DNA of 64,000 bases from NCBI GenBank assembly GCA_963748215.1, contig CAVVHS010000005.1:1-64000 (forward strand), in the 5' to 3' direction. The stretch's first letter is position 1. Every line of letters begins with the position of its first letter. The translations under genes were made by a program, and so were the position numbers. The notes beneath the pieces are model-generated. The model was not told the DNA's origin and made no database searches. It saw only the letters and a program-made list of their open reading frames with translations. This document shows, one piece after another, positions 13,269 to 53,518 of the stretch. Origin of the DNA: an uncultured Gammaproteobacteria bacterium (GTDB lineage: Bacteria > Pseudomonadota > Gammaproteobacteria > UBA9214).

Positions 13269-13463
13269 TCAGGACTGGTTGGTACCATCCTTGTGGCTCT
13301 GCTCGTCCTTGATGCGTTCGTAAATTTCCTCGCGGTGCACGGCAACATTCTTAGGTGCATTTACCCCGATCCGGACCTGATTTCCTTTCACACCCAGTAC
13401 GGTGATGGTGATGTCATCACCGACCATGAGGGTTTCTCCAACTCTGCGAGTAAGTATCAACAT
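13269..13463 (-). CDS. csrA: Carbon storage regulator
   Basis: [39 protein letters not shown]. Confidence 0.97.
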
Positions 13464-26497: not shown

Positions 26498-29400
26498 CCG
26501 CCGCTGCTACCCGCGATCCGCTGCTGGCGACCGATCCTGCGCGCAACGCCAGCGTGCACGCCTCGGCCGGCACCGGCAAGACCTGGCTGCTGGTGACGCG
26601 CATCCTGCGCCTGTTGCTCACGGGCGTGCGTCCCGACAGCATTCTCGCCGTCACCTTCACGCGCAAGGCGGCGGGCGAAATGGAACAGCGCATCATGGAA
26701 CGCCTGCGGGAACTGATGTGCGCCTCGCTCGAACGGCTCGACATCCTGCTCGCGCAATGCGGCATCACGCCGGATGACGACGTCCGCGCGCGCGCCCGGC
26801 AATTGTACGAGCAGGTCCTGTTCAATCCCTGGCGACTGCGGGCCACCACCTTTCACGCCTTCTGCCAGGAACTGCTGCAGCGCTTTCCGCTGGAGGCCGG
26901 CGTCATGCCCGGCTTCGAGATTCTCGAGGCCACCGGGCTGTCGGAGCAGGCCGCGCGTGATGCGCTGCTGGCGGAAACGGCCGCGCAACCCGATGGCGCT
27001 CTGGCGCAGGCACTTGCCACGCTGGTGGAAGGCTGCAACGGCCTGCACAACGCGGTCGCGTCCCTGCGCGCGTTCCTGGCGCGGCGCAGCGACTGGTGGG
27101 CCTGGGTGCAGGACGAACCCGATGCGCATGGCTTTGCCTGTCGCCGGCTCGCTGATTTTCTTGCCATCGAGCCGGAACGCGATCCGCTGCAGGGCTTTCC
27201 CTCCGCCGCGCTGCGTGGGCAGCTGGCGGAATTCGCCGCCCTGCTGGAACGCAACACCAGCACCGACAAGGACCTCGCCGTCGGACTGTCCGATGCACTG
27301 GCCGGAAAGGCGGATCAAGCGGCGCTGCTCGATGCCATCAGCCCGGTGTTTCTTACCGCGAAAGGTGAACCGCGCGCACGCAAGGCCAGCAAGGCGCAAC
27401 AGCAGCGACTCGGCGTGGCTGGCGAGGCGCGTTACCTGGCGCTGCACGCCGAACTGAGCGAGACACTGGTTACGCTGCACGACATGCTTGCACGCCACCG
27501 GACCTGGCGCACCACCACGGCGTGGTACACCGCCGGCTTGCGCCTGCTGGAGCACTTTATGCGCATCAAGCGCGAACAGCGCGTGCTCGATTTCTCCGAC
27601 CTCGAGTGGCAGGCCTGCGAACTGCTCAACCGCAGTGCGCACGCCAGCTGGGTGCAGTACAAGCTGGACGCACGCATCGATCACCTGCTGGTGGATGAAT
27701 TCCAGGACACCAATCCCACCCAGTGGCGCCTGCTGTTGCCGCTGCTGGAGGAACTGGCCGCCGGCGGCGCCGAGCGCGCGCGCTCGGTGTTCCTGGTCGG
27801 CGACCGCAAGCAGTCCATCTACAGTTTCCGGCGCGCCAATCCGGCCCTGCTGGGCCAGGCCTCAGACTGGCTGGCGCAGCGACTCGACGCACAACGTTTC
27901 CCGCTGGATGCCTCGCGGCGCTCGGCGCAGGCGGTCATGGACTGTGTCAACGCCGTGTTCGGCCGGCCGCCGCTCAACACACTGCTCAGCGACTTCACCC
28001 CCCACACCACCCACCTGGCCGACGACTTCGGTCACGTGGAACTGCTGCCGCTGGTCACGGCGGCAGACCCGCCGGACACCGTCGCGGCAGCGCGCAGCGG
28101 CCTGCGCAACCCGTTGCAGGAACCGCGCAGGGTCGCCGAGGATGTGCGTTACGCAACCGAGGGCCGCCTGATCGCAACGCGCATCGGGCAGCTCGTCGCG
28201 GCGCATACGCCCGTGACCCGTGACGGAGCGGTGCGCACACTCGGTTACGGCGACGTCATGATCCTGCTGCGCCAGCGCACCCATGCCGGCGCCTACGAGG
28301 ATGCACTGCGCGCAGCCGGCATCCCCTACCTCAGCGCCAGCAAGGGCCTGCTGCTGGAGAATCTGGAAGTGCGCGACCTGGTCGCGCTGCTGAATACCCT
28401 GATCGCGCCCTACGACAACCTGGCGCTGGCGCAGGTGCTGCGCGCACCGCTGTTCGGGCTGGACAGCGAGCAGCTGGTGCCACTGGCCAGCGGCGATGCG
28501 GTTTACTGGTACGAGCGTCTTGTGCAGCTTGCCGACACCGGACAGACACCCTACGACGCCATCCACGCGCAGCTGGAACGCTGGCGCATGCTGGCCGGCC
28601 AGGTGCCGGTGCATGACCTGCTGGACCGCATCTTTCACGAAGGCGAAATCGTGCAGCGCTACGAGGCTGCCTTCCCGGCCGCACTGCTGCCGCGCGTGCG
28701 CGCCAGCCTGACGCGCTTCATCGAACTGGCGCTGGAGATCGACCACGGCCGCTACCCGAGCCTGCCGCGCTTCCTCGAGCAGCTCAACCGGCTGCGCGGC
28801 TCCGACCAGGACCAGCCCGATGAAAGCACACCGGACGACGCCGGCGGGGACCGCGTACGACTGCTCACCATCCACGGCGCCAAGGGCCTGGAGGCACCGG
28901 TAGTCTTCCTCGCCGACACTGCCGCGACGCCGCGCAGCCGGGACGCCTATACAGTACTGCTTCGGCAGGCAAGCGACAGCGCCAGGCCCGACCTGTTCAC
29001 GCTGGCCGGCCGGCGCGCGGACGCGGATGCGGCCACGCGCACCCTGCTGGCACAGCAGGAGGTGGAGCAGCGCGCCGAGGACGCCAACCTGCTGTACGTG
29101 GCGCTGACGCGCGCACGTCAGTACCTGTTCATCTCCGGCAGCCAGCCGGACCGTGGCCATGCCGGCAGCTGGTATGCACAGATCGACAGCGCGCTCGCCG
29201 ACTGGCCGCAGACAACGGATGGCCATCGCTATCGCAGCACCGGTACACCCGCTGCGCTCTCACCACGGACCGTCGAGCCTGCCCCGGCCATCGCGGTCGA
29301 CCCGAGACTTGCGCAAGCGCTCACGGTCAGGCCCGCGTACATCCGCATCGCGCCCAGCCTGCAGGCGCATGCCGCCACCGATACCGCGGGCGACCCGGAT

Positions 29401-51152: not shown

Positions 51153-51398
51153 TTACTGGGCCTGCTGTACCTTCAGCAAATGCGCCACACGATCGGATAT
51201 CACGGCACCCTGGCTTGCCCAGTGATCCGCACGTTCGGTATCGATGCGCAAACGCACCTCGCCGCCGGTTGCCACCGGGTTGAAAAATCCGATTCGCTCG
51301 ATATAGCGTCCGTCCCGGCGATTACGGCTATCCGTCACCACGATGTGGTAGAACGGACGCTTCTTGGCGCCGCCACGTGACATTCTGATTGTCACCAT
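51153..51398 (-). CDS. rpsP: 30S ribosomal protein S16
   Basis: [31 protein letters not shown]. Confidence 0.98.
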
Positions 51399-51812
51399 AA
51401 AACCTGTCCTCTGCCTGAAAATCCGCCCATGCACCCGCACCTGAAAAATGCGGCTGCTGAAAGCCGGGCAATTCTACGCGAATTCCGGGAAATGTGAAGG
51501 GTTGCAGGCAATTAACCCGTGACGGTTGCACGTCACCCGGGATCGATCTTCGTCACGTGACACGCCATGTCGGGACACGCTGCCATCGGCTGGACGATCG
51601 TCCAGGTTGTCGAGATTGGTTACAGTCACTTCACGACGCCATCCCCTGCGGCGCGCAGCCGATTAGTTATTGTTTTCTCGATATTTCTCCCGCGACAGCG
51701 GCACGCGCCAAGGCGGCCGGTCTGTCGGCATTTCTTACGCAGTCGCGCCGGCGCCGGCGCCGCAATTCGGGGCAGCCATCTAACCCATTCTGCTAAATAG
51801 GGTTTTCAAGGC

Positions 51813-51828
51813 TGGCACGGCATTTGCT
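51813..51828 (+). promoter_or_regulatory. sigma54 (-24/-12) promoter
   Basis: TGGCACG-GCAT-TTGCT matches the TGGCACG-N4-TTGCW consensus exactly. Confidence 0.8.
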
Positions 51829-51838
51829 TATTTACCAA

Positions 51839-52025
51839 GGCGAGCAAAGAAGAAAAGAACAAGGGGGGGAGGTAGTTCCAACGACACAAGAACAGGAGCT
51901 CTCTGCACAACAATTACAAGAACCGGCTTGCGCAGTGGTATCTGTACCAGCAGTACAAGAACAACAAATTCGATACCCTTATCGCGCAATGTTTGACGGT
52001 GGCCCAGGCCACCGTATTATTTTGT
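51839..52025 (+). ncRNA. Candidate CrcZ-like A-rich Hfq-sponge sRNA
   Basis: After the sigma54 promoter; repeated ACAAGAAC/AACAACAA tracts; terminator ACGGTGGC-CCAG-GCCACCGT-ATTATTTT. Confidence 0.6.
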
Positions 52026-52165
52026 GCGCCTTCCAGTCTAGCTAGCCCGCATTTCTCACCGGGCGGCGGTTATCCGACTCAAATGAACTGAACTATGAAA
52101 TTAATACTCATTCGGCAATAAACAATGTGTCATTGGCCGCTGCCTATCCCGGTGAGACATGCGGG

Positions 52166-53518
52166 CTAGAACGGCAGGCCCATCGGCCCCTTGCCTTTCA
52201 TGCCGCGCAGCATCTTGCCCATCCCGCCTTTCGACATCTTCTTCATCATTTTCTGCATCTGCAGGTGCTGTTTCAGCAGGCGGTTCACGTCCTGCACCTG
52301 GGTGCCGGAACCCGCCGCGATGCGACGCCGGCGCGAGCCGTTGATTACACCCGGGAAGCTGCGCTCGTGCGCTGTCATGGAATTGATGATCGCCTTCATG
52401 CGATGGACCTGTCCGTCATCGGCCATGGCGTTTTTCGGCAACTGGCCCATCCCGGGCAGCTTGTCCATCAGGCCGGCGAGCCCGCCCATGTTCAGCATCT
52501 GGTCGAGCTGGTCGCGGAAATCGTTCAGATCGAAACCCTTGCCCTTGCTGATCTTCTTCGCCAGCTTGGCGACGGCCTCCTTGTCGACCTTCTGCTCGGC
52601 CTCCTCGACCAGGCTCAGCACGTCGCCCATGCCGAGAATGCGCGAGGCCACGCGGTCGGGATAGAACGGCTCCAGCGCCGCCGTTTTCTCGCCCACGCCG
52701 ATGAACTTGATCGGCTTGCCGGTGACCGAGCGAATCGACAGCGCGGCACCGCCACGGGCGTCGCCATCGGTCTTGGTGAGCACCACGCCGGTCAGCGGCA
52801 GGACCTCGTTGAAGGTGCGCGCGGTATTGGCGGCGTCCTGGCCGGTCATGCTGTCGACCACGAACAGTGTCTCCACCGGGTCGATCGCCGCGTGCACGCG
52901 GCGGATCTCTTCCATCATCTCGTCATCGATGTGCAGGCGGCCGGCGGTGTCGACGATCACCACGTCGATGTGCTGCTTGCGCGCATGCGCGACCGCATCG
53001 CGGGCGATGGTGACCGGGTCCTGGTCGGCACGACTCGGGAAGAACACCGCGCCCACCTCGTTCGCCAGCGTCTGCAGCTGGTCGATGGCCGCGGGCCGGT
53101 AGATATCGCAACTGGCCAGCAGTACCGTCTTCTTCTCGCGTGCCATCAGCCTGCGCGCCAGCTTGGCGCTGCTGGTGGTCTTGCCGGAACCCTGCAGGCC
53201 GGCCATCAGGATCACCGCGGGCGGCTGCACGTTCAGATGCAGCGCGTCGTTGGCATCGCCCATCACGTGCACCAGCTCGTCGCTGACCACCTTGACGAGG
53301 GTCTGGCCCGGGGTCAGGCTCTTGAGCACATCCTGGCCAAGGGCGCGCTCGCGCACCCGGTCGATGAACTCTTTCACCACCGGCAGGGCGACATCCGCTT
53401 CCAGCAGCGCCATGCGCACGTCGCGCAGCGCGTCCCGGATATTGTCCTCGCTCAGGCGCCCCTGCCCGCGCAGGTTGCGGATCGTTTTGGAGAGGCGTTC
53501 GGATAGATTGTCAAACAT
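52166..53518 (-). CDS. ffh: Signal recognition particle protein
   Basis: GLQGSGKTT, DTAGR, TKTDGDARGG, ILGMGD. Confidence 0.98.
   Translation of the reverse strand: MFDNLSERLSKTIRNLRGQGRLSEDNIRDALRDVRMALLEADVALPVVKEFIDRVRERALGQDVLKSLTPGQTLVKVVSDELVHVMGDANDALHLNVQPPAVILMAGLQGSGKTTSSAKLARRLMAREKKTVLLASCDIYRPAAIDQLQTLANEVGAVFFPSRADQDPVTIARDAVAHARKQHIDVVIVDTAGRLHIDDEMMEEIRRVHAAIDPVETLFVVDSMTGQDAANTARTFNEVLPLTGVVLTKTDGDARGGAALSIRSVTGKPIKFIGVGEKTAALEPFYPDRVASRILGMGDVLSLVEEAEQKVDKEAVAKLAKKISKGKGFDLNDFRDQLDQMLNMGGLAGLMDKLPGMGQLPKNAMADDGQVHRMKAIINSMTAHERSFPGVINGSRRRRIAAGSGTQVQDVNRLLKQHLQMQKMMKKMSKGGMGKMLRGMKGKGPMGLPF

Follow-up and report, generated by a model that had tools for sequence, protein, structure and literature searches.

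Between rpsP and ffh of an uncultured gammaproteobacterium, in a stretch of 64,000 nucleotides that was analyzed as a whole (GenBank assembly GCA_963748215.1, contig CAVVHS010000005.1, positions 1 to 64,000; hereafter the window), lies an element that, judged from its sequence and those of its relatives, is a real, structured, and non-coding small RNA (sRNA) gene on the plus strand (51839-52024; Table 1). It is preceded by a sigma-54 promoter and by two upstream boxes, in which, on sequence grounds, we recognize the PEP-CTERM box described by Haft et al., 2006, and the sRNA is probably activated by PrsR, i.e., a member of the PrsK/PrsR regulon. We propose that its product is a trans-acting RNA that is rather likely to bind Hfq and that might titrate this protein in the manner of Pseudomonas CrcZ. 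The complete account, viz., a PrsR-controlled, Hfq-binding, trans-acting sRNA working with titration, offers the best explanation of the element, and we give it an even chance of being correct.

The sRNA gene is widely retained among the relatives of the genome carrying the window (G000; 3.52 Mb, ~60% G+C). By blastn, 5 of the 24 genomes sampled from its own genus contain the stretch, and a scan for the exact terminator sequence, with one genome per species, returns 17 loci, nine of which are the sRNA element in metagenome-assembled genomes (MAGs) of uncultured Gammaproteobacteria and the other eight unrelated coding sequence. Ten distinct versions are alignable from promoter to terminator, and the covariance model built from these (CM R1) matches 34 of the 37 genomes of the genus, including all 19 of high quality, and, at the level of the order, 50 of 54 genomes (E<=0.01) distributed over five of its six genera. 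On inspection, the weakest match (genome G017) proved to be a spurious one, to a terminator behind a coding gene, leaving 49 of the 54 genomes. The sixth genus (g21; genome G064) possesses a diverged copy at the same place that is missed by the model, and the remaining three genomes without a match are 64-83% complete. Thus, promoter, boxes, RNA, and terminator are conserved in 49 genomes of the order, far beyond chance expectation, and the conservation among relatives on which the original prediction of this sRNA, made from the letters of the window, had staked its reading is borne out. One MAG (G045) has two versions of the sRNA on different contigs (L019 and L012 on C520 and C226), one of them identical to that of the window and located at a contig edge, which suggests a mixture of strains in the bin.

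The only open reading frame (ORF) proposed for the region (51824-52045, 73 codons) begins at the TTG within the -12 element, and in just 4 of 47 homologues is its frame free of stops up to the 3' end of the RNA, the two closest relatives having a stop 2-3 codons in; therefore, the coding reading is rejected, as the original prediction had anticipated. The long stop-free stretches seen in many homologues reflect low T content rather than a preserved frame. The conserved fold, as obtained with RNAalifold on a MAFFT alignment and in agreement with the model-fitted alignment, has three parts, namely the helices P1 and P2 and the terminator. Compensatory changes are seen in 12 of the 25 predicted pairs across 48 full-length sequences, including all four pairs of P1 and all five inner pairs of P2, and the stem of the terminator is either invariant or compensatory throughout, with the U tail UUUUUAUUU in most homologues. 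The cells of the alignment predicted to pair do so in 91.6% of cases as against 28-52% when the partners are slid; this 48-sequence alignment was fitted to the covariance model and is somewhat biased toward structure, but the independent MAFFT alignment yields the same helices. The loop of P2 holds ACAAGAACAACAAA, with an (ARN)4 run at 51957-51968.

Table 1. Features of the sRNA locus and its surroundings, in positions of the window
Feature	Position	Strand	Remarks
sRNA, ~186 nt	51839-52024	+	CM R1 match 51838-52025, 197.7 bits
Sigma-54 promoter TGGCACGGCATTTGCT, TGGCAC-N5-TTGCT (-24/-12)	51813-51828	+	perfect match
Distal enhancer box 1 TGTCGAGATTGGTTACA	51608-51624	+	PEP-CTERM-box type, predicted PrsR site
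Proximal enhancer box 2 TGTCGGCATTTCTTACG	51723-51739	+	predicted PrsR site
Conserved ATTGTTTT between the two boxes	51669-51676	+	block in the upstream alignment of 10 homologues
TAACCCATTCTG, semi-conserved YAA-N4-TT	51781-51792	+	~30 nt upstream of -24; TGG-anchored alignment of 47 promoters
5' A-rich stretch AAAGAAGAAAAGAACAAG	51846-51863	+	contains the (ARN)4 run 51847-51858
A-rich motif ACAAGAAC	starts 51886, 51916, 51955	+	three occurrences in the sRNA
Invariant G-run GGGGGGGAGG	51863-51872	+	invariant alignment columns; consensus gGggGgaG in 48 sequences
Most conserved A-rich run AAGAACAGGAGC	51888-51899	+	invariant AGAACA, immediately 5' of the closing strand of P1
Conserved block CUCUCUGCAC after P1	51899-51908	+	single-stranded; possible pairing seed if the RNA acts by base pairing
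Helix P1 (GAGC 51842-51845 / GCUC 51898-51901), 52-nt loop	51842-51901	+	encloses an A-rich loop and the G-run
Helix P2 (UUGCGC/GCGCAA and GGUAUC/GAUACC), large loop	51928-51989	+	RNAalifold and covariation
Rho-independent terminator, 8-bp GC-rich stem 51996-52015, then ATTATTTTGT	51996-52024	+	U-rich tail
Sigma-70-like rpsP promoter (TTCACA-16-TAGAAT)	51471-51498	-	divergent from the sRNA gene; block kept in relatives
MITE-like (miniature inverted-repeat transposable element) inverted-repeat insertion, ~125 bp	52040-52166	.	separates the sRNA terminator from the ffh stop; outside the sRNA

The promoter that the original prediction had singled out is the only instance of TGGCAC-N5-TTGCW within the 64 kb (expected number 0.12; at least one in 12 of 100 shuffles) and one of 15 such instances in the whole genome, and the pattern TGG(C/T)A(C/T)-N5-TTGC is kept in 47 of 50 loci. 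The predicted 5' end of the RNA is placed 12 nt past the C of the GC of the -12 element (51839 +/-2), and the A-rich motifs and the hairpin with its U-rich tail likewise lie where that prediction had put them. The space upstream, which it had thought roomy enough for enhancer sites, revealed on alignment of the upstream regions two conserved 17-bp boxes of the form TGTCG-N7-TTAC(A/G). In the first 10 homologues, box 1 is placed at ~-205 relative to the TGG of -24; box 2, considering the loci that show both it and the promoter, begins 90-92 nt ahead of the TGG in the 33 loci outside G023 and 96 nt ahead in G023; in the window, the spacer between box 2 and the sigma-54 site is 73 nt. Within the order, the two boxes are spaced ~112-132 bp apart (115 in G000), and box 2 is kept in all five genera with matches to the covariance model and in g21. 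By a strict regular expression, 40 of the 50 loci have both boxes, eight have one, and two have none, the last being a locus without upstream sequence and the spurious G017 match. The YAA-N4-TT element upstream of -24, which has a similar counterpart in the promoters of other families, and a T-tract are situated between box 2 and the promoter; going by the IHF consensus, these may form an IHF bend site.

The two boxes match in organization what the text of Haft et al., 2006 (PMC1569441) describes as PEP-CTERM motif 1, a 17-nt element that ends in TTTACA, is sometimes repeated, and is placed 32-92 nt before a sigma-54 motif, a range that includes the 73-nt spacer of box 2. By the same account, this motif precedes 99 of 167 proteobacterial PEP-CTERM genes and has a phylogenetic profile that exactly matches those of PrsR, PrsK, and PrsT (PMC1569441). 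The identification of the boxes of the sRNA with the PEP-CTERM box makes PrsR its most likely activator. In a class-wide search of 401 genomes, the box followed at 70-80 nt by the sigma-54 site was recovered 28 times in 25 genomes as against once for the reversed control, with most of the matches outside the order sitting before genes for secreted proteins; of 10 such downstream proteins tested from other genomes, nine exceed the PEP-CTERM or VPLPA-CTERM cut-offs. Of the genomes with the pattern outside the order, 17 of 23 have PrsR (TIGR02915) above its cut-off, versus 3 of 23 genomes without the pattern (the first on the list), and so do all five genomes of the order that lack a good match to the sRNA model. 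Published work further reports binding of a regulator of the PrsR type to the promoters of PEP-CTERM genes in D. vulgaris (PMC3333781) and, in Aquincola, a dependence of pepA on RpoN and a lack of flocs in a prsK mutant (PMC9850573).

Within G000, prsK (TIGR02916, 736 bits; cut-off 300), prsR (TIGR02915, 691 bits; cut-off 502.6), and the exosortase gene epsH (TIGR02602, 153 bits; cut-off 105.6) are consecutive (C4:17477-22570), and ~2 PEP-CTERM proteins are encoded. One of the PEP-CTERM genes (C4:23063-23494) is divergent from prsK and has two boxes (C4:22708 and C4:22842) and a GG-N10-GC promoter ahead of it. The relaxed box by itself has 39 occurrences in the whole genome versus 30 for the reversed control, and pairs of boxes within 250 bp of each other exist at just two loci in the 3.52 Mb, namely this prsK-side PEP-CTERM gene and the sRNA. 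The pattern search, the cut-off tests, the co-occurrence with PrsR, and the paired boxes in G000 together place the sRNA, with the probability given at the outset, in the PrsK/PrsR regulon. A third PEP-CTERM-box/sigma-54 promoter is found in the exosortase locus (C4:26050-26990; box at 26986, TGGCAC-N5-ATGC at 26768), where it precedes a gene for a 207-aa secreted protein.

The same layout, with two boxes, a sigma-54 promoter, and a terminator-ended RNA of ~200 nt following one another from rpsP to ffh, recurs beyond the order. In the family f163, the promoter pattern is found somewhere in 19 of 41 sampled genomes, and in eight of these it is at rpsP-ffh with the entire layout; one genome of the family f189 also displays it. 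In the eight rpsP-ffh counterparts from other families and genus g21 in which both boxes are detected, these are 113-117 bp apart. When applied without filters to the counterparts from other families, CM R1 detects no homology (best E 0.037), and for ten similar loci from other families nothing relevant turns up in Rfam at E up to 0.1. A well-supported fold of their own is seen in the f163 RNAs (compensatory change in 15 of 38 pairs), with a hairpin whose 19-nt loop comprises AAY repeats followed by a G6-A run and whose sequence is unrelated to that of the window sRNA; G6-A runs are also found in the g21 counterpart. The shared layout and the distinct f163 fold with its A-rich loop, combined with the failure of the model to detect these RNAs, thus suggest that the design of the locus was kept while its sequence drifted across families. 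These positional counterparts may include cultured species, which would make the sRNA hypothesis testable.

Two further classes of loci emerged behind promoters of this type. One codes for a conserved protein of ~60 aa without a signal peptide, whose gene, in at least two families, immediately follows a PEP-CTERM-box/sigma-54 promoter (L127, L128, L135, L136, L139, and L140 in f163; L114 and L115 in f35), which may be an unrecognized member of the PrsR regulon. The other comprises predicted short, ORF-less, terminator-ended transcripts that are not at ffh (L093 and L094 in f122; L099, L109, and L118); some of these are GGA-rich, none has an Rfam match, and PrsR may drive several unrelated sRNAs.

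Turning to the RNA itself, its A content is 31-41% in a genome of ~60% G+C, and its A-rich stretches of the AAnAAnAA and (ARN)n types are enriched 6-8-fold: the former number 2.9 per RNA as against 0.36 in dinucleotide shuffles, and (ARN)n runs with n of at least 4 occur in 41 of 48 RNAs (1.52 per RNA versus 0.23 expected). The G000 version has four overlapping AAnAAnAA motifs in 2-3 stretches. These A-rich runs are situated in the 5' and 3' parts of the P1 loop, the P1-P2 linker, and the P2 loop, and while the sequence of the loops differs between genera their A-rich periodic make-up stays; loops that vary in this way but remain A-rich would seem to be more in keeping with a protein that recognizes them than with a fixed target that pairs with them. 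The single Hfq of the genome is comparable to that of P. aeruginosa (PDB 1u1s; E 2e-36), being nearly identical over chain residues 7-64 and conserving Y25 and K56, the residues that served to demonstrate how CrcZ occupies the distal face of Hfq via A-rich stretches and so titrates it (PMC4063720). The A-rich stretches in unpaired regions and the U-tailed terminator are hence predictive of binding by the sRNA to Hfq, which should involve both the distal and the proximal faces. Alongside hfq, which the original prediction had left to be sought in the genome together with rpoN, the latter gene is likewise present in a single copy, with 11 sigma-54 activators.

We propose that the sRNA would be transcribed only once a sigma-54 activator bound to the two upstream boxes fires the promoter, and that this activator would be PrsR, the response regulator in PrsK/PrsR, which is the system that switches on the PEP-CTERM (exosortase-sorted) surface proteins. 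Given the boxes shared with the PEP-CTERM genes, the sRNA would then serve as the post-transcriptional arm of an exopolysaccharide/floc regulon. By displaying unpaired A-rich stretches and a 3' U tail, it would engage Hfq on both faces, and by competing for or titrating Hfq in the CrcZ manner it might let A-rich mRNAs escape from Hfq, possibly in combination with base pairing via the block of the invariant G-run. A-rich motifs are found in 125 of 3327 predicted start regions of the genome (16 under both definitions), and these are not obviously connected to the exosortase locus. In its broadest and most speculative form, which we consider rather unlikely in full, the proposal is that the PrsK/PrsR system possesses a conserved RNA arm, an Hfq-titrating sRNA of an origin independent of CrcZ that is kept at rpsP-ffh in several gammaproteobacterial orders and couples the building of the exopolysaccharide/PEP-CTERM matrix to a global release of Hfq-repressed mRNAs.

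To our knowledge, sigma-54-dependent sRNAs are few (CrcZ/Y, Qrr, GlmY/Z, and NrsZ), and each is the main output of its two-component system. The known outputs of PrsK/PrsR have so far been PEP-CTERM protein genes only, and an sRNA behind PEP-CTERM boxes would provide this system with a post-transcriptional one, besides serving as a simple reporter of PrsK activity. In our literature search, in which supplementary tables were not covered, we came across no publication that connects an sRNA with PrsR or with the regulation of PEP-CTERM genes. If the sRNA does occupy Hfq, it would constitute a second and independent invention of the CrcZ principle, tied to the production of a surface matrix rather than to carbon choice. 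PrsK/PrsR is widespread in environmental Proteobacteria and is tied genetically to floc/biofilm formation (PMC9850573).

Several points weigh against a PrsR-controlled, Hfq-titrating sRNA. With respect to its regulation, the binding of PrsR to the boxes is deduced solely from the motif and co-occurrence; the boxes end in TTACA/TTACG as against the TTTACA of most PEP-CTERM gene boxes, and their likeness to motif 1 was judged from the description in the text of the paper rather than from its logo (PMC1569441); PrsR falls below its cut-off in 6 of the 23 pattern-positive genomes (of which three are 75-88% complete, with some of the pattern matches looking spurious); and the pattern-negative set was no random draw. 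Further, the homologues are kin and counts among them are not independent, and the start site, size, and abundance of the sRNA are predicted values. With respect to its action, 7 of the 48 homologues are devoid of any (ARN)4 run; with only 2-3 A-rich sites per molecule, titration of Hfq would need a high copy number; Hfq binding offers no explanation for the invariant G-run and the conserved CAUUGCAC block, which look more like a pairing seed; and most known Hfq sRNAs work through base pairing. Considered as the main mode of the sRNA, conventional base pairing therefore remains quite plausible, a little short of even, and titration, which is the reading we adopt, is possible but held tentatively.

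The best-surviving alternative keeps the gene and its PrsR/sigma-54 control and sees in the product a class II-like, Hfq-dependent base-pairing sRNA, with the G-run and the block after P1 acting as seeds, for example on motility or exopolysaccharide mRNAs, and with the A-rich stretches merely docking Hfq. In this specific form, it is somewhat unlikely. The exact conservation of the unpaired blocks, the G6-A runs common to the diverged counterparts, and a size and terminator typical of base-pairing sRNAs speak for it. Against it, a duplex scan of five unpaired segments versus the 3327 predicted start regions performed no better than shuffled segments, and the regulon and neighboring genes (prsK, prsR, epsH, the PEP-CTERM genes, ffh, and rpsP) were not outstanding (best z -1.84), although a scan of a single genome with rough gene calls that ignores accessibility is weak evidence either way. 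Moreover, the block after P1 is itself not constant, reading CUCUCU/CUCUUU in G000 and its two closest relatives as opposed to CUCAUU elsewhere.

A function in cis, which we consider improbable, has to be judged from the setting of the locus. The genes around it, rplS, trmD, rimM, rpsP (51153-51398), and ffh (52166-53518), are on the minus strand, and all features of the sRNA are on the plus strand of the 767-bp spacer between rpsP and ffh, a locus other than cbrB as had been foreseen; with both neighbors on the minus strand, the sRNA gene is antisense to each of them and convergent with ffh. Convergent sigma-54 transcription or antisense pairing could accordingly modulate the read-through from ffh into the rpsP-rimM-trmD-rplS operon or act on the 3' end of ffh, and the position at rpsP-ffh is indeed kept in three families despite divergence past detection by the model, while on the minus strand the terminator hairpin lacks a following T-run, such that transcripts from ffh may extend across the sRNA gene in antisense. 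Yet the sRNA ends before the ffh stop codon in every case, its conserved structure and A-rich loops indicate a function of the RNA itself, and the ffh-rpsP junction is conserved anyway, which makes synteny alone a weak argument. The sigma-70-like promoter of rpsP lies only ~110 bp from box 1, and cross-talk between the divergent promoters is conceivable. The MITE-like insertion on the other side of the sRNA has 32 more genomic copies of at least 95 nt and is missing from the rpsP-ffh spot in most relatives.

Similarly improbable is an RNA of the CsrB/RsmZ kind under PrsR, which would titrate CsrA/RsmA and thereby derepress exopolysaccharide genes. A csrA gene is present in the window itself (13308-13463, minus strand; PF02599, 91.6 bits), which together with hfq means that both RNA-binding regulators are at hand, and GGA-rich predicted short transcripts do occur in other families behind promoters of the same type (L093, L094, L097, and the g21 copy). 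In the sRNA, GGA is if anything depleted (2.0 per RNA versus 3.2 expected from composition), which is why we regard CsrA titration as unlikely; in addition, A-N-GGA is missing from 42 of the 48 RNAs, and the single conserved GGA is that of the G-run. We are equally disinclined to accept another of the 11 sigma-54 enhancer-binding proteins as the activator, e.g., a GlrR/QseF-like one with the RNA as a GlmY/GlmZ analogue. The genome does encode a GlrR-like protein (628 bits, below the cut-off of 763), and the boxes begin with TGTC like the GlrR site. Nevertheless, a perfect palindrome of 18 bp (TGTC-N10-GACA), accompanied by its own sigma-54 promoter, adjoins the glrR-like gene, suggesting a separate box and target for this regulator, the boxes of the sRNA are 17 bp long, asymmetric, and common to PEP-CTERM genes, and there is no match to GlmY/GlmZ of Rfam. 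The palindrome (C8:480839) and its TGGCAT-N5-TTGC promoter are located just downstream of the GlrR/QseF-like gene in the region G000:C8:480520-482332, before a gene for a 587-aa protein.

The least probable alternative is that of a CrcZ/CrcY member or analogue under a CbrB-type activator relieving Hfq/Crc-dependent carbon catabolite repression: despite the sigma-54 promoter, the upstream enhancer sites, the A-rich motifs of the CrcZ kind, and an Hfq resembling the Pseudomonas protein, a cmscan of 51300-52300 with Rfam at E up to 10 gives only two irrelevant weak matches and none to CrcZ, none of the 11 sigma-54 activators is named CbrB by NCBIfam (which may have no model specific to CbrB), the two proteins of the ExoIII family are scored as exodeoxyribonuclease III, and Pseudomonas-style catabolite repression would be unexpected in the host, which looks like an autotrophic sulfur oxidizer. 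This view of the host, already ventured in the original prediction, fits the presence of SoxB (697 bits; cut-off 550) and of the RuBisCO large subunit. The search for crc retrieved four Exo_endo_phos proteins, the two just mentioned and two without an NCBIfam match, with no Crc reference among the sequences compared. Hence, of the likeness to CrcZ/CrcY that the original prediction had drawn, the sigma-54 promoter, the A-rich make-up, and the enhancer sites stand while kinship does not, and control by CbrB as known from Pseudomonas gives way to boxes of the PEP-CTERM type that point to PrsR.

Set against known systems, the sRNA shares with CrcZ/CrcY of the Pseudomonadaceae a promoter that is RpoN-dependent by its sequence, a two-component response regulator as the predicted activator, and unpaired AAnAAnAA/(ARN)n stretches; it differs in having no match in sequence or structure, in its 186 nt with ~3 stretches as opposed to the 407 nt with six reported for CrcZ in the text of PMC4063720, in its position at rpsP-ffh and not beside cbrB, in its PEP-CTERM-type boxes, and in its apparently autotrophic host. 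With the promoters of PEP-CTERM genes, it has in common a 17-nt, sometimes repeated box 73 nt upstream of a -24/-12 element in a genome with prsK, prsR, and epsH; unlike these, its product is a non-coding RNA and not a secreted protein, and the box ends in TTACA/G rather than TTTACA. Other sigma-54-dependent sRNAs, viz., GlmY/GlmZ of the Enterobacteriaceae, Qrr1-5 of Vibrio, and NrsZ of Pseudomonas, are 100-200 nt long and have their own two-component regulators; the window sRNA is reminiscent of them in its distant enhancer boxes, probable bend site, and sigma-54 promoter, but has no Rfam match to them and differs in its activator and predicted physiology. The class II Hfq sRNAs ChiX and MgrR, with known pairing targets and sigma-70 promoters, similarly combine an ARN motif and a U-tailed terminator in one small RNA, whereas no target is predicted for the window sRNA. 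Overall, on each testable point the element agrees with a PEP-CTERM-box promoter and departs from CrcZ in model match, size, locus, and predicted activator, and we suggest that it represents a new family of sRNAs whose regulatory connection is likewise new.

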